DNA from: Callorhinchus milii
Taxonomy: Eukaryota
Direction of reading: 5' to 3'
Length of the DNA: 64,000 nucleotides
Assembly: GCF_018977255.1 (NCBI RefSeq)
Contig: NW_024704743.1
Location: 28,832,001 to 28,896,000 of the forward strand
The position numbers and the translations under genes are program-made. The notes under the pieces were generated by a model. It saw only the letters and a list, made by a program, of their open reading frames with translations. It did not search any database and was not told the DNA's origin. Of this stretch, positions 861 through 63,110 are shown piece by piece; the first letter of the stretch is position 1, and every line of letters starts with the position of its first letter.

Positions 861-1012
861 TAAAAGGCATTAAATAAATGTAAATAGTTGTTTCAATTAA
901 AAATATTTAAATATTTTTTTTCCTCAGGAATCCCGTATCGTGTTGGAATGAAAGGTATATTGAAAGAATTCTTACACAAAATAAATTTATGCAGTGAGAG
1001 ATGAAGAGATAC

Positions 1013-1137
1013 CTGAAAGTGCATCCTGAGCCTCAAAGAAGGTGCTGAGGCCTCCCTTCACATATGCCAGGCTTCCTTCATTCTTCTTGTTAGCCTGCTT
1101 CCTTAAATAATTTGCAGCAACTTTCAGCTGATCAAAA
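1013..1137 (-). CDS. EXOC2: EXOC2 coding exon (exon 6), 125 bp; not in the ORF track
   Basis: Read manually: (S)[41 protein letters not shown]; acceptor ccttttcag, donor AG|GTATCT; frame continuous with the previous exon. Confidence 0.96.
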
Positions 1138-1420
1138 CTGAAAAGGACAAGGGAAGACATTTTCTAGTTTGCTGATGTAATAGAAGTGAGAAAAAGACAG
1201 CAGACAAGAAATAATAATAATCCTTGTATTCGAAATAGCGCCTTATCACGTCGTTGAGATGCCTCAAAGTGCTTCACAGAATATACTGCAACGTGGACTG
1301 ACTGTGTATTTCAGCAGCCTTATTGCAGGAAATTAAATATATCTGTATATCAGAGAAACAGTTCAAATAAACCCTTATAGGTAACTTTAATCTTTGAAAC
1401 CCAATAAACTTGCAAAGGAT

Positions 1421-1744
1421 TTAATAATAATAATAATAATCCTTGTATTTGATATAGTGCTTTTTACGTCGGGAGGACGTCCCAAAGTGCTTCACAGAAC
1501 ACACTGTAAAGTGAATTGACTGTATATTTGTGGGCGAACGCGGCAGCCAATTGCGCACAGCAATGTCCCACAAACAGTCGTAGATTGAAAATGACCAATT
1601 TATTATTGTTTTTGGTTTTGGAGGGATTATTATTAGGTGTGTGGAGTCAGGAAACTTGCCCAAGGTTTCGCCCTCTGCCTGGAATTGAACTCAGGTCTCT
1701 CACTTGCAAAGCGAGTGCTCTAACCACTGAGCTACAGGACTCCA
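1421..1744 (-). mobile_element. tRNA-derived SINE, young short subfamily, full length
   Basis: tRNA-like head GGAGTCCTGTAGCTCAGTGGTTAGAGC, Deu-like TTTGTGGGACATTGCTGTGCGCAATTGGCTGCC, tail ending (ATT)n; near-identical to other copies. Confidence 0.93.
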
Positions 1745-2789
1745 CGCCTAAATTTTCTATAGCTGAATGATATGTGTCTTAACTACTTTGATTATAAAAT
1801 AGTATCCTAGGAACAGGGATAGGTAATTCTGACCTTGTCCCACCATTCTGCCTACAAAATATGCAATCAATTTTACAGTACTTCCTGTGAAGCGCTTTGA
1901 GATATCTTGATGACGTGATAAGGTGCTTATCAAATGCAAGGATTATTATTATTAGATCATGGCTGCTCTGAGCCTCAACTCCATTAACCCACCTTTTCTC
2001 CATACCCATATCTAACAAAGATCTATCACTCTCAGTCTTGAAAAGTACAATCGAGTAAAATTTCAATTCCAATAAAATTTACTTTAGTTAAGGTTCCAGG
2101 AGCCACACAAACCCTGTATTACACAATATTTATGTGCAGTATTCCATTGAATATCTAAATGGAAACAAGTATTTTATCTTAACAGCTTATCATTAAAACG
2201 TTGTATGAAATGTGAAAAGAATGTCTCAAGCACCATGCTCAGTCAAAAGGAATTGAGCATTTTTTTGAAAAAAGTGTAAAGTAGACTTAAAATAGAGAAG
2301 CAATTACTCATCTTGCATTGGTTTAGTGATGTGTTGTAAACCTATCTATAACTTTTTTTAAAAAAAGCCTCTAAAAAGTACATTTTAAAGCCCTTTTTTA
2401 AAATAGACACTTTTTCCGAATTCCCAGATGTAACATCAGAGTGGAGGTACACCGCAGGCTCTTTTACTGCTTAGTTCCCACGAGACAATTACTTACAAAT
2501 AGGTATTGTGTTATCCTTGTAATGGCACAGAACTCAAACCCCTTCATTTTTAGTTTTTTGTATAAATTTCTCATCGTTAATAACACGGGATAGGGAAGTG
2601 TTCACTGCTTATATCAGGGTGTACAGAGAAATTCACTGCTAATAACAGGCTATCTGGAAGTGTTCACTCCTATTAGTTTAGGGATGCTCAGAAATGTTGT
2701 GAAGCATTTTGAGACATTAAACGTAAAAGGATAGATGACCGAGTCCTACAAGTTTGCAGACCAACTGAAGGAATTTGATTATACAGTAA

Positions 2790-3190
2790 AACTCACGTAT
2801 GTCATATCAGTCGAGATCATAAGATTTCATACGTCTTAAGCAAAGTACGAGTTGCAGGCAAACTGTAGAAGTCGTATTAAATCCGGTAAGTGTGCATGCG
2901 GCGACGCTCAAGACTACATTTCCCGCGATTCAATGCGTCTTCACCCGTCACCACATGCACACTTGCGGCAAACATTAATCAAATAATAATCATTATTATT
3001 CATTGCATTGAATCAGGGAAATGAAGTTCTTCTGCACACGTGATGACAGATGGAGACTACGTTTCCCCTGATAGAATGTAAGTGCACGTGCGTTGATGCG
3101 TCCGGACGTCATTTCCCGCAATTCTAGGCCTTTGGTAAGCGTGGGTGTAATGGAGGATAGGGGAGTGACATTATGGGTTAGGAGGTGAGT
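2790..3190. promoter_or_regulatory. CpG-enriched ZNF143(Staf)/THAP11-type promoter within EXOC2 intron 5, likely bidirectional
   Basis: AGACTACATTTCCCGCGATTCAATGCG (2911-2937), reverse copy ACTTCATTTCCCTGATTCAATGC (~3004-3027), GAGACTACGTTTCCC (3053-3067), GACGTCATTTCCCGC (3105-3119); two CACGTG E-boxes; NRF1-like GTGCATGCG; outward-facing donors GTGAGT at 2791-2796 (-) and 3185-3190 (+). Confidence 0.65.
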
Positions 3191-3662
3191 AATTCGAGTA
3201 GCGTAAAGAAATCTAAGTATTTTTGATAGGAAACTGAACGATACTGGGGGTGAATGTACAATTTAGGCATTTATACAATTTATAAAGATAAGACTTACGC
3301 GAGTTTTACAACTCGTATATGATCTGAACTTTGTTACGTTTCAGGATTCAAACACACTGAATGCAAGTTATTGTATGCAGGAAGACAATTCAATTAGGCA
3401 AGAGTGAAAATACATATCTTTAACTTTGTATGTAGCTATCCAAAGTGTTGATCAGGTTTAAAAGTGAAAACATGAAATAGTTTGGGAATATTACCAGCTT
3501 TTTTGTATGTACTGCAATCGTAATGTAGGACTCAGTTTTGGTGAACAAATTTGTGTATTTCACTTGAATATTTTTTTCTTTTAAATAAAGATTTTAATGG
3601 CGTTGTGTTCACAGATTATCAGCACTGCAGCTTTCACCCTGATAACACCACCAGTTTGACAT

Positions 3663-4588
3663 ATGACACCCAACTCTATTTTTCCACCTCTCTTTGCGAC
3701 CCCCAGTCCCCTGATGTTTTGTCAGCCTACCTTTCAGATCTCAGGGGCTGGACGAGCGCAAATTTCCTTCAACTGAACGTCGACAAGACGGAAGCCATTT
3801 TCGTTGGCTATCGTCAACATCTCAAATCCCACGGCTCTTACCTCCTCCACCTACCCGACTTCCCCCTAAAACTCTCTGAACCCGTACGCAACCTTGGCGT
3901 CAGGTTCAACCCCCAATTGTCCTTCCTCCCCCACATCCAGTCCCTCACCAGCACTGCTTTCTTCCATCTCCAACGCATCGCCCATCCCCGCAAATATCTC
4001 TCTCCGAAAGCCGCTGAAACCCTGGTCCATGCCTTTGTCACCTCTCGGCTGGACTACTCTAACTCCCTCCATGCCGGTCTCCCATCCACTACCATCCATA
4101 AAATCCAAATCATCCGAAACTCTGCCATCCGCATTCTCACCCGCACCAAACTACGTTCCCCGATTACCCCAGTCCTTGTCAGACTGCACTGGCTGCCTAT
4201 CCCAGAGAGGATCGACTCCAAGATCCTCACCCTTACCCTTGTATTCAAATCCCTCCACTCCTCTGCACCCCCCCCTATCTCTCTGACCTCCTTTCTCCTC
4301 AAAACAGGGTCGGGCCTCCTCCTCGTCCCCCGAGCCCTCCGCTCCACCTTCGGTGGCCGTGCCTTTAGCCACTATGCCCCGAGGCTCTGGAATTCCCTTC
4401 CTCACTCCCTTCGTCCCCTCTTTTCCTACTTTCAGGTCCCTTCTGAAGACCTTTCTTTTCGACCGCGCCTTTGGTCACCTTCCTCCCCCTCCCCCTGGCT
4501 CGGCCCCGGAATTCATTACTGTGAAGCGCTCTGAGACGCCGTCCAGCGTGGAGGGCACTATATAAATCCAAGTGGTTGTTGTTGTTGT
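3663..4588 (+). mobile_element. 5'-truncated L2-clade LINE (RT C-terminus + 3' UTR)
   Basis: ORF contains DTQLY, FLQLNVDKTE, VRNLGVRF, LVHAFVTSRLDYSNSL, LHWLPI, FSHYAPRLWNSLP; (TTG)n tail. Confidence 0.93.
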
Positions 4589-9932: not shown

Positions 9933-10046
9933 CTTGTAACTGAGTGGTTTTCTATCAGATACCAGGTGGCTGAGAAGTTTTCACTGGTAAAATCTCCGCT
10001 CATGCCTTCAAACAACCCTTCCAGGTCCTTCTGAGGGACTTTGCCT
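9933..10046 (-). CDS. EXOC2: EXOC2 coding exon (exon 5), 114 bp
   Basis: (K)[37 protein letters not shown](S); acceptor tttttgtag, donor AG|GTCAGT. Confidence 0.96.
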
Positions 10047-13000
10047 CTACAAAAAGAATTCCAATTAAATATTTATAGAATGTCATTTGCTTGTTAAACA
10101 AAGCAAATGTACAGATCTTCAATGCTTCTGACACAAGCAACAATTCCCGAAGCAGCAGTTCTTAGAGAAAAAATATTTAACGAAAAGATGTTGCAATTTG
10201 TAATGATGTCTGTTGTATTTAAAATTATGCACAATAAGATTATTACTCCTCTTCCCCTGCCTTCAAAAAGTCTGAACATTTCGTATTGATTTCAGCGCAT
10301 ACTTTCATAGCTAAAAGCATTAAAGAAAAGCTGGATCAGAAACTGTACTGCATTTTTTTTAAACAATTGCGACCAAAGCTTCTATTCCTATAATTGAAGA
10401 GTTGAATGAATCCACACAGCTTCCATTTTCTACAGTTCAGCGTGTTATGTATCCGGTTCTCCTAAGTTTAAAGATACAAATTATTTAAATTGGTTTAAAG
10501 TTGTAAAGGTTTCTCTATACGTAGAAATGCTTAGTTTATATGATGGGATTATTGGGGGGACAGGAAGAACTAAGAACATTATGTCCGCTTTCCTTTCTGC
10601 ATTCGGTTCAATACCTTAGGAGACTTTATCAAAATCTGATAGAAATCAATTCACACAGGATTTTTTTAAAAAATGGATGGACATAACCAGCAGAAGCCAA
10701 TTACTGTACGTTACTGCTGCCCAAAAGTCCAGGATCCGGTATAATCTTATACCATTTAAAATGAGTAAAAGTATTTGCTTTTTCTGTAAACAACCGTGTT
10801 TGCTCTTAACCGCACTGCAAGAAACAAAATACCTCCATGTCAGGAAGCTTCCTGAGCCACAGATTTCAGAAGGAAAAGAATAAACTCCTAACACTTATGC
10901 CTGTGCAGCTTTGGTTCAGCTGCTCGCTCAGTAATTTTATTTGACTCTGGATAACTTTGCCTGTCTTGCCCACACATCTGTAGAACTTTGTGATGTACAC
11001 CAGAGAGAACGGAGGGGGGGAGGGGGGAGAGAATAAAGAAAGCGAGTGAAGACTCTGAAAAAAATAAGTTATCCAAATGTAGTGTAATAAAAGTGATGAG
11101 GAATAGAGTAGAATACATTAATAACGTGTTCTAGCCCACAAAGATCAAGTTGACAAGATGTAAGTGCTTGAAACCATTACAAATGTAGGTTCACTTGGAG
11201 TTCACTTTTCCCTTTATATTACACAGCCGATTGTGTCTCGAATATATCAAGTACCATGTAAGTGCAACTCCTCACTGTATCACGTTAAACTCTCTTCAGC
11301 ATTGATTTTGCTGCCACTCTCTCGCTCAAAATCTTACATCTTTCAAACCATAATATTAAGGCAGTAGAAATCTAAAGGCTGGGGCAACTTATGTCTTAAA
11401 TCACAAGTTTAAACCTAATTAACAATCTGATAACACCATATCTGTGGTTTAAAAATGGGATTAAAATGCTTCCACTCATCATGCAACTCAAGTTATATTG
11501 AGCCAACATTAAAATTGTACAATACACGCATTTAAAAATGTGCCTTTGAAGTATTGCAGACTATCTACCATGGGGTGGCACTGTGAGATTGTGTTTGTTT
11601 GAGCGTAATTTAATGAAACAACAAACATTGGAAGATGAAATGCTCTGTCAGTGGCTGAGTATTGTGGGTGGAGACCTTGCTCGGTGGGACCAGCCATATT
11701 TTATATGTTGAAATCCACTCTGGTACACAAGTTTGATCTGTGCTAATGATCTGTGCAGAGAACTCATGCTGACATGATGATTTACACCCATACTGTTAGT
11801 CTGTGCAACACTGTATGCTTGTGAGATCCTGACATCTGTGTCTGCCATGATCTACGAAGAACGTTTAAACTGAAGCAGTACTTCAGTTTATGGTGCAGTT
11901 TTAAGTGGTAGAAATAAAATGCATACATGCAGATAAATTACTCTTTCCTCTTTTACGGGGCAAAATACATCCCTGGAAGGGTGAGGGCACAATGATATTA
12001 TAGCGAGAGCAGAGAGCATACCTGCCACTCCAGGCAGCACAAGGACAGTGATCTAAGAGCCAACTGCATTCCCACAAAGGGCAAACCAACCTCTATAGAC
12101 ACCCTGGGGCCCTGAAGCATTCAATAGTAATGTAGACAAGAAATATGAGCACTGATAGATTTCAAAATTAAAATGCCAAGTTCAGCAAACCGTTCATATT
12201 TTCAGCTGGTTGGCACAAAAAACATTTCAGACATGTTGAACAGTTAAATTGCTATGCAACTTTTAAACTAATAACTTTACAGAACCTGCAAGTGTTTAAT
12301 CCTTAGGCCCAGTTCGTTTTAAGAAGAATTGACAATACAAATCTAATGAAACTTTAAAAAGCACAATTTTTTTAAAATCTCCTTAAATAATTATGCAATG
12401 GCATTTTAAATACGATTTTATTTTAGCTATATGCTCCATAACTTTACAGCATATTCTTTGAAGCACTTTGAGACGTCTGGAAGACGCAAGGATCCAAGGA
12501 TTATTATTACAACGGATGCAAGGATTATTATTATAACGGAACATATCTTGAAGAAATAGGCTTTGGTTAAAACTGGAGTACTTCGAAAGTGATTATATTT
12601 CATGTATGTAAAAGCCATAACAAGCTTCATAAAATTTGAGTTGAATACATGGATGCAGCAAGCTAAATATAATGCTCCTTTGACCTGAAAACTGACCATT
12701 TTGCTAATGAAGGCCAACAAACCACCAGTAAGAAAAAAAACCTCATTAGCTAACTTCCTCGGCCAATGTTTTGTGCAGCAGTGCATACATAGCAAGTCTG
12801 TGAGGCACTGAATTTTAAATAGATCAGCTGCAATCACTGGGATGCCGTGATCTTTGAAGTTCCCAGTCTTTAATTTGAAATGGAGTTGACAACTTCTTCA
12901 GTAAAAGTGGTTGCTTTTGGCTGGAAAGAAAACTCTGTGCAACCACTGTTACATAAACATTCAGCAGTTGTTTTACTTGCAAATGGACTCATTGGCACGT

Positions 13001-13414: not shown

Positions 13415-14487
13415 CAACAACAACAACAAGATTCCATTTATAGAGCGCCTTTCACGTCGGGAGGACATTCCAAGGCGCTGTAGTAATAATAATAATAATA
13501 ATCCTTGTATTTGATATAGCGCTTTTCACGTCGGGAGGACGTCCCAAAGCGCTTCACAGAACACACTGTAAAGTGAATTGACTGTATATTTGTGGGTGAA
13601 CGCGGCAGCCAATTGCGCACAGCAATGTCCCACAAACAGTCATAGATTGAAAATGACCAATTTATTATTGTTTTTGATTTTTGGAGGGATTATTATTAGG
13701 CTCTGTGTGGAGTAAGGAAACTCGCCCAAGGTTTCGCCCTCTGCCTGGAATTGAACTCAGGTCTCTCACTTGCAAAGCGAGTGCTCTAACCACTGAGCCG
13801 CAGGACTCCCAACTGTACAGTCCTGACCCAACTGTACAGTTGGGTCAGGACCTGAGCAGAGGGGAAATGGTCAGTGTGAGGGGAGGGAAGGGAGGGAGCG
13901 AGGAGGGGGTAGAGAGTCGAGAGGGGAGCTGAAGGCACGGTCAAAGAGAAAGGTCTTGAGCCAGAGGAACGGAGGGTACGGGCAGGTAAGTAGGGGGATA
14001 GTAGGTCAGAGAGGTAGGAGGGAGCGAGGCCGTGAATGGCCTTGTAGGTGAGGGTGAGGACCTTGAATTCGATCCTCTGGGGGATGGGGAGCCAGTGGAG
14101 GCGAGCGAGGGTGGGAGTGATGTGGTCGCGAAGCCTGGTGCGGGACAGTACACGAGCTGCAGAGTTCTGAATGACCTGCAGCTTGTGGAGGGAGGTGGCG
14201 GGAAGGCCGGCGAGGAGAGAGTTCCCATAGTCCAGCCTTAAGGTGATAAAGGCGTGAACCAGGGTTTCAGCCGCATGAGGGGTGAGGTAGTGCCGTAGTC
14301 TGGCGATGTTCCGGAGGTGATGGAAGGCGGTGCCAGTTGTGGTGCGGATATGAGGGAGAACGGACATCTCAGGGTTGAACAGAACACCGAGGTTCCTGAC
14401 TGACTTTGAGAGGTGGAGAGTGCAGCCTTGGATGCTGATGCTGTCAGCGCCTGAGGTGCGGAGGCGCTGACGCGAGCCAATCAGGAG
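13415..14487 (-). mobile_element. 5'-truncated L2-clade LINE, split by a SINE
   Basis: ORF 13786-14367 has HLRNIARLRHYLT, LVHAFITLRLDYGNSLL, LHWLPI; (CAA)n tail at ~13415-13430. Confidence 0.92.
13483..13809 (-). mobile_element. tRNA-derived SINE, young short subfamily
   Basis: Full length, inserted in the L2 3' UTR. Confidence 0.93.
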
Positions 14488-16304
14488 GGCTTGGGGACCC
14501 CAGAGTGTGCATTGAGGTACTGCTGGAGTCTAACCAGCTAACATCATTGATATCACTGTCTTGCAAGTTTTCCCGCTGCTTGTCCAGCCAGGACCACCCT
14601 ACCCTCTGCAGGGTTAACGGGAGCTGAGGTGAGCAGGACGCGTCCCTCCAGGGAGAGAGTGCGCATTCCATTCCAAAAACCTATCTCTGGGATTTTCGCG
14701 TCTAAGAGGGATACATGGAATTCTCAGTTTGGTTTGGAAATTCTTATGCATAGTGATAGGTTTCCGCATGTGTTGAGACACCTGGCTGACCCCCCAGAAA
14801 TTAGTTGAACGCATCGATTTAACATCAGTCGGAATCTGTTCACATGCATAAATCTTACATTCCAATGGAGCAACACGAAGCAATAAACTGGCATTGGAAG
14901 TGCTAAATAACGCATTTCTGGTTATTTTAAGCTATAGCTTATGGCTTGTTCATTTCCCCTCTCCCACCAGTCATTGTGGGTGGTGTGCGTGGGTATTTAT
15001 TACAGTGTATTTATTCGATGGCTGTGCAATCCCCTCTTTGACTAAATTGCTGCGGTGTCTGGTTGCTGTGGAGACGTGTCTAGTGATGTCATATAACACA
15101 GCACATGTTGGGAAGCTGGCGCACTCCAGAGAGAGACTTGTACTCCTGTCACCCAGTGTTTCACAACAAGAAGAAATATGTATGTTGTAACGGTTACCAC
15201 AAAATGTTGGGAAGCTATAACCATTGTATAAAGTACAAGTGTACTGAGCCAAAGAGCAATCATTGGTTTGTGGAGTTTTGGAAAGTAAAAATGTCCTATT
15301 TAAGGCCAATAAGTTACCACGGTCAACGAGAGGTTAAACTGGAGCTTCAGACAGAAACTTCAACTTATTTGCAACTGTCGCTCTCTGCATGTTAACTTGT
15401 CTCTCTCTTTCAGACACTGATCGATCTGCTGTGAGTTTCCACATATCCTATTTTTCCTTTCTTTTTTTAACCTCTTCTTGCACTCCTCCACAATGAAACC
15501 AGTGTCTGCACAATTGGTTTGAAAAGGTCAAGTATTACAATGAACAAACCTCAAAACAAAGTATGCGCTGCTTGGAGATTCATCAGATGCATCTGAATTT
15601 AGAGGGAATGACACAATGGAAATTTTAAGTATTTGGAAAAGTCAGGTTCTTTAATGGGAAACATCAGTGATTCAACAACTAGTTAACTTCCTAGTGATAT
15701 TTCATACTCTTTGGGTAACAATGTTATTTTATTTTTCAGGTCAGCAGGAAGGCTTACTCCCGAGAGTAATCCTTATCATACACAGGGCAAATTAGGTGAG
15801 AAGTTGTTGCATGAAACAACACATAAGATTTCATTGATGTTCAATGTATAGTCACCGCACAGAGAACTGTAAAGGCAGAGAGACAGGGAAATCCAAAATT
15901 TTGCAAGGATGTAACACAAAACAGTCACCTGGATTGACAATTGATGAAAACATTGGCAGCGATTGATAAGAAAAGTTGGAACACTGCTGTACACGTTTTA
16001 AGTAAGAAACTATGCTTCAGAGAACCAAAGAAATTTGCAGCACTGAAGAAATTCTGCCCATTGGGTCTGTGCCGGCTCCTTCAAGAGCATTCCCTTCATC
16101 CCATTTTCCTGCCACAGTAACAGTGCAAATAGTTACCAAATTCAATCAAACGGTTAACATTCTACCTCAACATGATTATTTTTAAATAAATACTACTGTG
16201 CAGTCTTGTAAATAGGTTTGCCTGCTTGGTTTAGCACTAAATAAGGCAGGATTGGGAACGGTGTGAATCCAAGCTAATGCATCAGCTCAAGCAGTGACCT
16301 TTAT

Positions 16305-33660: not shown

Positions 33661-36600
33661 AACAAGGTTGATTAAAGGAACTCTCTAGCCCCCACATGCA
33701 CGCTTAATTGCAATCATCTTTCAAGAAAAGCAAGAGGTTTCAAGTGCGTGTCTGCTAACACTTGCTCAAAGGAAGATTCAGTCATTTGTCGATCAGTCCT
33801 CCAGAGGGCAGTCAAACTCAACAGAATGCTTTTGCAATAGAAGTTACATTAATATAGCTCTTTTCACATCGGGAGGATGTCTCAAAGAACTTGACGCTGC
33901 GGGCTGGGCACTTGAGCTGGGGGCCTAAGGCGATGGGGAGAGAATAGATTACCAAAAACGCAGTCAAAGAGGTCTTGAGATGTACAGGTTAATCATATTT
34001 AATAAAAGTACACTACCATTTTACATGTACATTTGGACCTTAAATACACTGAGGGATAAGCCACATTTTCCATATTGGGGGCTTGTACTATGTGAATTAA
34101 GTACAAAATGTGGTGCAGTGTTTTGACAGTACGGGTCCTCAACACCTGCTGCTTCAGGTTTGAAATAGACTCAGATTGGGGATGGGGGCAGAAGAGCTTT
34201 TGTGCATATCACATACGTTCAAAAATGTTTGACAGGTATTCTTGCAATCTAACATTCTTCCTCACTTATAAGGAGTGTCTTGAAAACTGAGCAGACGCTA
34301 ATGCCTCCAGGCAACTTCACTCAGCTTGTGGCTAATGAATGCTGTACTTTAGGTAGAGCGGGGATTGACGTCAATAACGCTATCAAATGTAGTTTACCTG
34401 TAAAGGTAATACTTTCCAGACCACAATAGCACAAAAATGCTGCAATACTCCGTTTGGAGTAACCACAACAAATTGCATTTATACATCATAAGTAATGCAC
34501 CATTAACTGTAGACTTAGGTCATGCACTCAATCTGAACTATTGGAGGGAAAAACAACAACAACAAATTACACCTGTATGGCTCTCTTCACATCAGAAAGA
34601 TGTCCCAGGGCACTGGACAGTCAAGGTTTTTTGGACCTGAGCTGGGAGTCAGGTGTGGAGGGCAGTGGGTGGGGGTAAAACCATGTAATTGGGTTAGTGC
34701 AACATTGCTTTGGACAATACTTTCTTATGATTATAGTGTAGGATTTAGACTTCAGTTCATTGAAGGGGATATTTTGTGTACTGTTATGAAGTCCTCAATC
34801 TTCATGAACCTTTTGTAAAAATTATGCTTGGATAATTGTGCAGTTAATTCCTTATTCCAGTCTCCCGTCTTAATCCAACCTCTGTGTAGAATCTATATAA
34901 AAGGATATAGGGGAAACGTACATTTATACAGTGCCTTTTGTGATAAGGCACTATGTCAAACACAAGGATTATTACTATCTGTCCCTTTCAGTGTCCACAG
35001 CAGTGACCACAATGAAAGGTTCAGGAATTACATCTGTCAATTCAAAATTGTATGTTAACACAATCCATTATGCTTCAAGTACTTTGAGATGTCCTCCCAA
35101 CCCGATCATCAAAATGTTTCAAAGCTGTACTGTAGAGTGTAGTGGTCATGTATTTTGTAGGCACACTCGGCAGCCAGTTTGTGCACAGCAATGTCTCACA
35201 AACAGCCTTCTGATTCAGAGGCGAGAGTTCAACCAACTAAGCAGACTGCTACCTGACAGACGCAAACCTAGTCTGCTCAGCCTCACCTACTTCCAAGTGA
35301 CCACTGTATCACAGTACCACTCTGCCTTTGACAGGAGGAACATTATTAACATGCCAAATAGTGAAAACATTTTTTTATCACAGAGATGTAATTGTGTTAT
35401 TCAACTCCCTACAACCCAAGGATTACTTGTATCGTATATCACTGCAGAAACGTAGCATAAAAATACCTGTACTTGATGAATTTGGCTTCATTTCCAAACC
35501 CAATTGATTAAAATATGACCCAATAATTTAAAGAGAATGGTTTGTTATTCCGTTAAATAATATTAATTACCAAAAGCACAGAGGGAGAGAGGTGAAGATT
35601 ATTAAAAAAAGATTTTCGCCCGCAAAATACAGTCACTACACTGTACTGTATATTCTGTGAAGCGTTTCGAGACGTCTCAACAATATAAGGCGCTATATCA
35701 AATACAAGGAATGTTATTATTATTGTTAAAATGTGGAATATTCTACCCAAAAAAACTTGTATTTGGTATAGCGCCTTCCACATCAGGAAGACGTGCCAAA
35801 GTGCTTCACAGGATTTACTGTAAAGTGTTGTGACTGTGTGTATTTTGTGGATAAACAATGCAGCCAAATTACACACAGCAATGTCCCACAAATAGCCAGG
35901 GAGTGTTTGAAACAGAATCCATAATTGCTTTTAATGGGGAATTAGGCAAACCTCCAAAAAGGGAAAATATAAAAGGGTACAGGGAAAAGGCAGGGAGGTG
36001 GAATTCAAAAGATGGCTCTTGCTGATCCATAGCCAGAATGGGTCGAATATACACCTTCTGTGTTGAAAAATTCTATGATTAAATATTTCACTTGTTAAAA
36101 AGCAAGTTTCAAATTTGTACTGCACTGTAATACACTTTACATACATTCTAAGTGCTGTGGGATGTGAAGGGGAAAAAACACACAATTCTTCTCCTCAAAA
36201 CTATTACGTCTAGTTTACAAACGTGCAAAGTTTGCTTTTCCCTCTCTTCCCTCCCATCTCCACAGACACAGTCTGTGCTACCATGGACCACATAAGACTG
36301 CAATCGGCTCGTCCGCATCAATATACTGTATGATTAGTTGGATTTTTCAGAGTATGAAACAACATTTTATTGCACTGATAAATCTCTTTACTCTGGGGGT
36401 GTTGACAGTGGCAGCAGCTCCTACCTCCATGTGGGAACGTTACTGACTGCATGCCGCCTGGAGGCAGGGGCCACTTCAGTTCAACTTGTAAAGATCAACA
36501 AGTCCAGAAGTCTTAACTGTGCTGCTGACATTCTTTTCCTGACTTACACGAGTCATAGATCACATTCTCACTGCTCGGCAGAGACCAGAACCTGAGCACT

Positions 36601-47277: not shown

Positions 47278-47938
47278 CATAAGAACATAAGAATTAGGAG
47301 CAGGAGTAGGCCATTTGGCCCCTGGAGCCTGCCCCGCCATTCGATAGATCATGGCTGATCTTCTGACCTAACTCTAATTACCTGCCCTATCCCCATATCC
47401 CCTAATCCCTCTTTTTTTAAAAAATCTATCAGTCTCAGCCTTGAAGATGTTCAAGGACTGAGCATCTACAGCCTTCTGGGGTAGTGAATTCCATAAATTC
47501 ACTACCCTCTGAGTGAAGAAATATTTCCTCAACTCTGTTCTAAAAGGCTGACCCTTAATTTTAAGACTGTGACCCCTGGTTATAGATTCTCCTACCAGGG
47601 GAAACAGACCCTCTGTGGCTACTTTATCCAACCCTTTAAGAAACTTATATGTTTCAATAAGATCCCCCTTAATTCTTCTGTACTCTAGAGAATATAGCCC
47701 TAGTTTATTCAGCCTATCCTCATAGGTCATTCCCCTCATCCCAGGAACTAACCGAGTGAATCTACGCTGCACCCCCTCTAGGGCAAGTATGTCCTTTTTT
47801 AAATAAGGAGACCAAAACTGCACACAGGTGCGGTCTCACCAAGGCCCTATACAGTTGCAGCAAGACTTTCCTACTCTTGTACTCTAAACCTTTTGCAAGG
47901 AACGCTAACATGCCGTTCGCCTTCTTAGTTGCTTGCTT
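47278..47938 (-). mobile_element. 5'-truncated CR1-clade LINE (ORF2 C-terminus + 3' UTR)
   Basis: QFWSPYLKKDILALEGVQRRFTRLVPG...RGHSLKIKG...FFTQRVVNLWNSLP; tandem CATAAGAA tail. Confidence 0.95.
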
Positions 47939-57584: not shown

Positions 57585-57745
57585 AGGCTAGCAAGTCCCC
57601 AGGTTTGATTCTGCTCCTGTCCTGGGATCAGTAGTCCTGGCTAGGATAGTGGTAGGGGAACATCAGTTAGACTCTGTTCCCCTAGGATAAAGAGGGGAAA
57701 ATCATCCAGATTTTCTGCTCCCGATTACGAAAGTTCCAGTGGAAG
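57585..57745 (+). mobile_element. LF-SINE-like relic
   Basis: gtccccaggtttgattc...ggtagggg...cccctagg...ggggaaaatcatccag...gctcccgat resembles LF-SINE. Confidence 0.5.
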
Positions 57746-59874
57746 TCAATCCTACTGAAGAATTCAACAGAATAATTACTGATTGCAAGGAACACAGAAA
57801 ATCGGCCATTCACTTTGACTGTTTGTGGGACATTGCTGTGTTACACATTGCTTGTCACCTTCACCTGCAAATAGTCATAACGCAAAACCCAAATGTTTCG
57901 ACATAACGCGCTATATCAAATCGAAGGATTATTTAACAAGCAATGACAGCAACCTTAGCCTGAGAGCAGTTTAACTTTCTCTGTATCATGATGTGCTTAT
58001 TGCAACAATAGAATTCTAGGATAAATCATGATATCCTAATATTATTTTGTACATACTAAATTAGAGACATATAATACTATCCCAGAATTAAAAAAATATA
58101 TGTAATCCCATGATTGAATTATAAATATACAAAGTGCTATCACTACATTCCATGGTAAAATCCAGTGAAGCATTTCGAGACGTCTTGACCACATAAGGCA
58201 TTATATCGAGTGAAAAGATTATTTTTATTATTATTATATCTTCATCAGCAGTAGGACAAAAAATTATAACGATAGAGCTGAACAATCCTTTTTTATAAAG
58301 CAAATACAGTGATTTAAAATCAGTTAATTGTTAGGGTAAATTATAGACTCAGTAAATACCAGCATATCTAGCAGCTGCATTTTGCACCTATAAAGCCAAC
58401 TCATTTTGAATCCACATTCCTGACAAAAATGTGACAAGTCACAGTGACCACCATAAAATCACACCTTCACGGCTAGGGCTATGGGAAAAATAGAAACATA
58501 ACTTTTCTTTTCATATGCGATCAAAAAAGCTGTGGCCTAGAGCAAGATTTGTGAGTAGCCCTAATTTCACTGTTATTTTATCCTGTTACAGGCCACACAT
58601 ATAGTGTAAGTGACACATCATTTAACAGGAAGAACGCAAATTGAATCCGACTAGGTTACATACTCTTAACTGTCTGAGAAACTCTGCCAAACATGGATAG
58701 AACACACAACGTAACTGACAATAAAAACAGTTTTTAAAGTTAATAAAAAATTCTAGGAAACGATAGTCCAATTCTTCTAAAGACGTTGTAGGTTTGAAAA
58801 AGACAAAAAAATCGGGTTTGAGTTTTGCATCAGACTAAAAACTAACTCTGAGCTAATCAGGTTTCTAAACAGACCAGATGTTCCCGATTATTATTAAGAT
58901 TGTTTTTGAAATTGTAAGTATAGGTCACGGACCTGGAAACCAAAAGCTCAATGAGGAATTCTCACAGCGGCTATAAAACACATAAGAAACAGCAGGTACG
59001 CCAACAAAGCTATAAGCTGGATATATGTTCGTTTAGCAACTAGATTAGCAGGGAATCTGTGTATGACACAGTAGTTTCAGTGGCTGAGAACCAGATCTGG
59101 TCGAGCATTGTGAGATGGAACCTACTCCTCAACTAATAGCAGAACCCACCAAAGACACGCAACCCTCTGGTAAACTGTCTCATCGTTCTTCCTTAGACTG
59201 TAAAATGTCTACCTCATGCGAGTGAAGGAGAAACTACAGATCAAGCTCTCAAAAGGTTCACTCCACTTAATTCAAAGGCAAGTGAAATTGGTACTGTCCA
59301 AAGCATTTCACCCATCTGGAAGTGGAGAAAGAAGTGGGAACAAAATGGAGGCGGTAGGAATAATGAGATACACACGTGTAAAATCTCATACATAAATTAC
59401 AACTCCAATGCAGGTTTTATGATCTACAAAGCAAAATTTTAATCTTTTAATGATCAGCACAAAATTCACAGTGAGGCTTTATACACGTGTGATTAATACT
59501 CGTAATTTTTTTGTAACGACAAACAAACACTCCAGGACCATCCGAGTTACCCAGTTACAGCAACTGAATGGTCACTATCCCAAACCAACACAATTGCTAC
59601 AAAACAGAAGTCGCTGGGAACACTCAGCGGGTCAGGCATCATCTATGTACAATTGCTAATTTGGTTGAATGCTTTCCCCTCCATTACTCAACACAAGATA
59701 GAAATTATAGAAATGCATTCAGTGTCAAACAATAAAGGTTTTGTACCACATGGTAACCCAGCACACTGAAATGTTGTCAGATCACTGAAAGTTCTCATTT
59801 GGCTTCACTGTGTGATGGATTGGTCATTTTTTTTAATGAAATCACAAGACAAAATTTCTCCATTGTGTGATTTA

Positions 59875-62949: not shown

Positions 62950-63110
62950 ACTCTTCTCCGAGAGCTCAAGCTGTGCCGCTTCCGAGTGCACCGAAACCGG
63001 AAATGCTCTCCTCCGCCAATCAGACGGGTCCTCACTCGCCAACCAATCGATTATCAGTGATCTCTTTGGGGCGTGAGGCGAGGGGAGGGGAGGGGGGGAA
63101 GGAGAGGACA
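62950..63110. promoter_or_regulatory. Candidate promoter (CCAAT x2, GC box, ETS), possibly the EXOC2 TSS region
   Basis: CpG-rich patch with CCGGAAAT (62997), GCCAATCAG (63015), ACCAATCG (63042), GGGGCGTG (63068) and a GGGGAGGGG tract; no convincing first-exon donor found. Confidence 0.45.

Follow-up and report, generated by a model that had tools for sequence, protein, structure and literature searches.

Within a stretch of 64,000 nt of Callorhinchus milii DNA (here called the window), an intron of EXOC2 carries a tight group of promoter-like motifs, and the question raised by this locus is whether the group marks a hidden bidirectional promoter of the ZNF143/THAP11 type, serving an unannotated divergent transcription unit nested in EXOC2 as a preliminary description had proposed, or whether it has another origin. 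The promoter-like motif cluster is real, but it is embedded in a short repeat, probably of transposon origin; most likely, what is seen is an unremarkable remnant of a mobile element, with no concealed gene pair.

The window carries vertebrate DNA in which a tRNA-derived SINE is abundant (12 tRNA-like hits; about 16 kb of self-matching sequence). The EXOC2/Sec5 exons lie on the minus strand, according to Pfam and PDB hits, with TIG/IPT exons at about 28,190 and 21,600, minus strand (Pfam TIG; PDB 1UAD Sec5, E 2e-34). Positions 9-51 of the Sec5 profile map to 10047-9933 and positions 52-99 to 1137-1013, with single-exon scores that are both under the whole-protein cut-off, as expected for lone exons. 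These two Sec5-domain exons are consecutive, and removal of the 8,795-nt GT-AG intron between them (9932-1138, minus strand) preserves the reading frame; the placement of the cluster inside an EXOC2 intron is thus borne out by the exons that flank it. The number 5 given to this intron, and the names exon 5 and exon 6 used here, follow what we take to be the human scheme, in which exon 1 is non-coding. Contigs from four public runs (X1, X2, X6 and X8; 4 of 12) were matched to positions 930-3860 at a likeness of at least 90%.

9933..10047, minus strand: EXOC2 exon upstream of the 8,795-nt intron (exon 5), from the Sec5 profile and the GT-AG intron.
1013..1137, minus strand: EXOC2 exon downstream of the 8,795-nt intron (exon 6), with a phase-2 start and no in-frame Met, found in contigs of X1 and X6.

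Some 35 kb upstream of the first EXOC2 coding exon, and adjoining a SINE, the segment 62940-63110 is a candidate native EXOC2 promoter, with CCAAT boxes at 63016 and 63043, CGGAA at 62998 (plus) and 62984 (minus), and a GC box at 63068; its CpG O/E of 0.76 makes it the second-best non-repeat CpG cluster in the window.

As to the intronic cluster itself, ACTACAnnTCCC is matched with at most two mismatches at the four sites described earlier (2913 plus, 3027 minus, 3056 plus and 3106 plus; sites 1 to 4 in this order), a number reached in 0 of 2,000 dinucleotide shuffles (mean 0.28) and, when the window is cut into 159 tiles of 401 nt, in one tile. The two CACGTG boxes are likewise present, at 3037 and 3085 (shuffle P 0.0065; two boxes in 2 of 159 tiles), and the high local CpG was confirmed, its O/E of 1.21-1.36 ranking first among 681 non-repeat 300-nt windows (background 0.39). 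TTTCCCGC, which we take to be the E2F consensus, occurs at sites 1 and 4, these being two of its three occurrences in the window. A segment resembling an NRF1 site can be recognized near 2891, but a core sequence of NRF1 is not matched there with one mismatch or fewer. Similarly, the donors GTGAGT (2796 minus, 3185 plus) and GTAAGC preceded by TG (3135 plus) are all in place, but the outward-facing arrangement attributed to them is not clean; further GTAAGT words occur within the cluster (2886 and 3078, both plus), and another, at 3298 on the minus strand, is directed inward. The GC content of the core is only 46%. Since SINE copies in the window have CpG O/E values of up to 0.74-1.07, CpG richness alone does not demand an island; the value for the element delimited below is 1.26, higher than in all the SINE and LINE copies measured (0.57-1.07).

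3185..3190, plus strand: donor-like GTGAGT in the right arm of the element, from a sequence match; the contig rows listed include no product spliced from it.

Comparison with published definitions leaves a single good site. The strict THAP11 site ACTACANNTCCCA (PMC3627581) is found at none of the four sites and nowhere else in the 64-kb window. The M4 motif ACTAYRNNNCCCR (PMC5006282) is present among the four only at 2913, and TCCCA occurs in none. Identities to the SBS2 probe of PMC3627581 are 18, 12, 15 and 14 of 25 for sites 1 to 4: the value at 2913 is the sole top score in the window, and the other three sites are at background level. Over the full 18-bp SBS, which overlaps the ACTACA half, compared with one published probe, the identities are 12, 7, 10 and 10 of 18, with 4 positions in the window scoring 13 and 19 scoring 12. 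With its one good site of the M4/SBS2 type, its E-boxes and its abundance of CpG, the cluster has what is, judged by its letters, a real promoter-like grammar.

2913..2937, plus strand: site 1, the best M4/SBS2-like site, overlapping TTTCCCGC; 18/25 to the SBS2 probe (PMC3627581) and M4 ACTAYRNNNCCCR.

The only other M4 match, at 4150, falls in a LINE. Two CR1/L2-like LINE 3' fragments are found, at 3545-4583 and 13786-14695, with open frames of 329 and 247 aa; the first, which holds this match, starts about 230 nt to the right of the element.

The number of motifs is less informative than it appears. The core consists of partial copies of one unit:

2872..3147, no strand: motif-bearing core, about five direct or inverted partial copies of one unit of about 45-50 nt, from gapped alignments.
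3003..3027, minus strand: site 2, which repeats site 1 in inverted orientation with one base fewer (14/17 complementary to 2920-2936).
3056..3080, plus strand: site 3, a direct copy of site 1 (80% over 25 nt).
3078..3124, plus strand: direct duplicate of 2886-2931 (74% over 47 nt), with the donor at 3078, the E-box at 3085 and site 4 (3106, second TTTCCCGC).
2946..2964, minus strand: inverted copy of 2888-2906 (17/19), both differences being CpG-to-TpG.

The duplication that relates 2886-2931 to 3078-3124 includes a donor, a TTTCCC site and a segment that resembles an NRF1 site or an E-box. For the most part, then, a single unit has been copied to give all four sites, the NRF1-like site, two of the donors and one of the E-boxes, which therefore do not count as independent evidence. 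Gapped alignment and the motif held in common are what reveal this unit; among ungapped direct repeats the best one does not rise above controls, 9 of 44 control tiles being as good. Across five paired internal stretches, which overlap in sequence and were picked after inspection, CpG-type changes make up 9 of 22 differences, whereas simulation expects 2.4-4.9 (P 0.0002-0.033, varying with the assumed transition bias). Such decay is suggestive of past germline methylation after the duplication, which may have occurred at the EXOC2 copy or in an ancestor copy. In contigs of X1 and X2 an extra C behind 3015 gives site 2 the spacing of site 1, and TG is read for CG.

On both sides of the core, candidate ends can be recognized for a repeat element:

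2784..3315, no strand: inferred extent of the element, ends uncertain, from depth, the inverted repeat, and TA at 2782-2783 and 3316-3317.
2786..2808, plus strand: left arm of a 23-nt inverted repeat, a candidate TIR (20/23 complementary to 3287-3309), holding the minus-strand GTGAGT donor at 2796.
3287..3309, minus strand: right arm of the inverted repeat, from complementarity to 2786-2808, holding the inward GTAAGT at 3298.

The inverted repeat has a score of 14, matched by 0 of 44 control tiles, with a narrow margin over the best control (13). On the left a TA precedes CAGT (2784), 2 nt outside the arm; on the right the TA at 3316-3317 is 6 nt outside the 23-nt mirrored arm, and the right end is thus an imperfect mirror of the left. 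Raised depth spans the bins from 2694 to 3379, which at a bin size of 98 nt do not fix the true termini. A wider boundary (2708-3352) with longer arm sub-repeats was considered and rejected: its 13 direct and 19 inverted low-stringency segments are within the range of 26 control tiles, and all three global alignments fall under the shuffle maximum. The element thus delimited is about 530 nt long, and the sole stop-free frame of at least 60 aa that overlaps it (88 aa) encodes no protein recognisable by eye. Its fold (2780-3320) has a z-score of −5.4, a stability that is not unique, the tile at 2801 being joint third of 184 (15 shuffles each). Non-repeat tiles at 35201-35400, 47401-47800 and 57601-57800 also have fold z-scores of −3.6 to −5.2 (15 shuffles each), and are maybe more fold-back relics. 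Directly to the left of the element, at 2571-2671, a 31-nt unit is repeated three times in tandem, in bins near single-copy depth.

Contig depth indicates that sequences related to the element exist elsewhere. X2 is unlabelled, and was taken as DNA because of its even coverage of the intron; its own-locus contigs (2072-2959, 2936-3287 and 3270-3692) have a depth of 6.5-9.3, and in the flanks (2106-2693, 3380-3575) the summed depth is 8.8-19.2 for 7 of 8 bins. Over the seven consecutive bins of 2694-3379 the summed depth is 511, 667, 377, 106, 126, 2,887 and 1,178, highest in the arms (such sums do not measure copy number, and the X2 tables are incompletely counted). By 3-mer entropy none of these bins is of low complexity, and the one at 2694-2791 is partly a SINE-tail-like 20-mer. 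A C>T variant at 3276 recurs in 17 separate X2 contigs (depth 408 of 2,442). In X6 and X8 the share of exact words is 0.00, yet the pile-up is seen in 7/7 and 6/7 bins, respectively, and must therefore stem from diverged sequences elsewhere. Its RNA/DNA depth ratios broadly resemble those of the SINE. An X8 contig links the two arms, passing from 2871 to 3148 with the motif core skipped or replaced, and a SINE end is joined to 3214 in three runs and to 3248 in one, as expected if other copies of the element carry SINE insertions. Matching is patchy, with depth at the single-copy value of 9.3 at 2823 and no more than 36-44 at 2905 and 3015, and the flank bin 2302-2399 summed to 103, near the values of two core bins (106, 126). 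What lifts this flank bin, which is raised in all four runs, is a 48-nt A/T-rich palindrome (2356-2403, 83% self-complementary), a low-complexity tract or a tiny repeat.

The preliminary description had called for a search to exclude a multicopy element; the outcome speaks against uniqueness, as many other contigs match the segment in patches at 90% or better, the inverted repeat is of a terminal type, and the motifs are largely internal duplicates. The contigs point to dispersed relatives, from which we infer tens to a few hundred diverged copies in the genome. There is no second copy elsewhere within the 64-kb window, and four pattern scans of viral and metagenome contigs returned no homologues. 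Listings of the literature showed no description of the element or of a promoter in the EXOC2 intron.

Our preferred reading, to which we assign a probability of about 60%, is that the stretch, non-coding and about 530 nt long, represents one copy of a non-autonomous TIR (MITE-like) element that is moderately repeated, and that it is passive in the EXOC2 intron. A transposase supplied in trans would have acted on the inverted ends and inserted the element, two arms flanking a 276-nt core, into the intron, possibly at a TA. The duplication of one unit of about 45-50 nt is visible in the core; the route, presumably local direct and fold-back copying, would have made one M4/E2F/E-box-like module look like a cluster of motifs. 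The core may derive from the promoter and first-exon region of a parent element, core-less derivatives appear to exist (one contig), and the EXOC2 copy is most likely a passive passenger that would be removed with the intron by splicing. The CpG O/E of 1.26 resists the passive reading, being odd for a diverged, methylated copy, and the narrow margin of the inverted repeat (14 vs 13), the unclean right end and the patchy depth count against a MITE-like one.

The strongest of the alternatives, in itself unlikely, is that the same repeat copy is active or co-opted as an intronic promoter, which ZNF143/THAP11 at site 1, together with the E-box and E2F-like sites, would keep unmethylated; its output might be short divergent RNAs, or a tissue-restricted (e.g. 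testis) alternative EXOC2 first exon spliced through the donor at 2796. The top CpG density among the 681 non-repeat windows is in favor of this idea, as is site 1, which is the best match in 64 kb to the SBS2 probe and retains CG where related contigs read TG at site 2. Moreover, a single SBS is enough for bidirectional activity (PMC3082894), and zebrafish has DNA transposons within introns that function as testis promoters (PMC9341505). The only own-locus intronic contig listed for X1, an RNA-like run, covers 2584-2819 at a depth of 3.7, directly to the left of the core; its source may be pre-mRNA, DNA, or transcription leaving the core on the minus strand, but it is unspliced across the donor at 2796. 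Exon 6 lies mid-contig in X1 and X6 (depth 175 and 183), and the match extends through 1139, which fits exon 5 upstream (it ends in AG) and not a candidate exon ending at 2797 (AC). A splice from 2797 to exon 6 would have an in-frame stop just upstream and would lack any start codon in frame as far as the end of exon 6, which is itself without Met; the idea of an alternative first exon of EXOC2 that supplies an in-frame ATG of its own was accordingly rejected, the frame being closed. The CpG-type decay among the internal copies and the failure of three of the four sites to match M4 also speak against activity.

For the divergent transcription unit that had been proposed we obtained no positive support. 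No partner or nested coding gene was recognised by eye on the plus strand in the filtered ORF list, and for a structured ncRNA there was no Rfam match at the gathering score, the best of 15 sub-threshold hits in 1950-3900 having an E-value of 0.36. No RNA run was listed by record for 2400-3600, which tells neither for nor against transcription. None of the 15 joints listed starts from 2797, 2885, 3077, 3134 or 3184 (897 more are masked by SINE noise, and contigs drop rare forms); contigs cannot reveal transcript starts, strand or absence.

We consider improbable the interpretation of the stretch as a solo LTR or as an element of some other class, in which case the core would resemble a U3 enhancer built of duplicated units, a reading for which the ZNF143-bound human MLT1J (PMC3627581) provides a precedent. 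A length of about 525 nt, the right end ACA at 3308-3310, the promoter-like motifs and the variable core content would suit an LTR; however, AATAAA is absent on both strands, there is no TATA box near the core, the left end reads AGT and not TGT, and no target duplication of 4-5 nt can be seen by eye at the candidate ends. Inverted termini and inverted internal units suit DNA elements better than LTRs, and the 23-nt terminal inverted repeat and inverted units found here argue in the same sense.

Highly speculative is the scenario in which a chimaera TIR family with a self-amplified ZNF143/E2F/E-box cassette scattered bidirectional promoters, the EXOC2 copy being unmethylated and germline-active, and giving rise to antisense RNA and to a 5'-truncated EXOC2 that lacks the N-terminal IPT exons (the IPT domain presumably being the Ral-binding one). 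Least probable of all is a single-copy host bidirectional ZNF143/THAP11 promoter with two unannotated spliced transcripts and with raised depth due to unrelated short matches: motif clustering and donors above shuffles, a single copy within the window, the patchy depth and one unrelated A/T-rich bin that is raised too would agree with it, but the seven consecutive raised bins between near single-copy flanks, the variant shared by 17 contigs, the arm-to-arm joint, the internal duplication of the motifs, a left donor that belongs to the inverted repeat, and the lack of a recognised plus-strand partner ORF or Rfam family in the searches above do not. A Crypton was also considered and found no support, animal Cryptons being without terminal repeats (PMC3212892).

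If the element is a passive relic its importance is small, that of one more repeat family to annotate, with the warning that motif clusters may arise by duplication within a single repeat. If core-bearing copies were active, they would constitute a DNA-element counterpart of MLT1J, spreading ZNF143/M4 sites in cartilaginous fish, and the comparison of core-bearing with core-less copies would be a natural controlled test.

These results can be placed beside known systems. With the SBS2/M4 promoters of ZNF143/THAP11-HCF1 (PMC3627581, PMC5006282, PMC3082894) the locus shares one M4 site at 18/25, degenerate copies in both orientations and CpG richness; it differs from them in having TCCCA at no site, three of four sites that fail M4, a core GC of 46%, no divergent gene pair found, and a repetitive stretch. 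The active reading too has precedents. Human MLT1J retroelements are bound by ZNF143 at SBS2 sites (PMC3627581), and like the EXOC2 element they are dispersed repeats with an SBS2-type motif; MLT1J, however, is a retroelement with ChIP support, whereas the EXOC2 element looks TIR-bounded and its binding by ZNF143 would be hypothetical. Promoters within Tc1/mariner elements are already known (PMC6446368), and in zebrafish DNA-X-6_DR in intron 11 of gpib is an intronic DNA-transposon alternative promoter (PMC9341505). The zebrafish intronic transposons resemble our case in being intronic DNA elements that could act as promoters and have a donor directed towards the next exon of the host gene, but they carry ATAC, CAGE and junction reads, while the EXOC2 element is known from its sequence and from contigs. 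DNA transposons are a minor class in the host genome, according to a review (PMC5381603). Compared with non-autonomous pogo/Tigger (IS630-Tc1-mariner) MITEs, the element differs in a right end with extra bases, which makes the TA duplication only a candidate, and in a motif-dense duplicated core that is not a defining feature of such elements, and no transposase partner was found for it; it is alike in its short non-coding form, 23-nt inverted repeat, TA at both candidate ends, dispersed relatives and internally deleted form. Chondrichthyan Tigger elements have TIRs of 18-23 nt and a TA duplication (PMC9219625, PMC7386202), and the arm length and TA of the EXOC2 element fit this type, of which it may be regarded as a candidate member.
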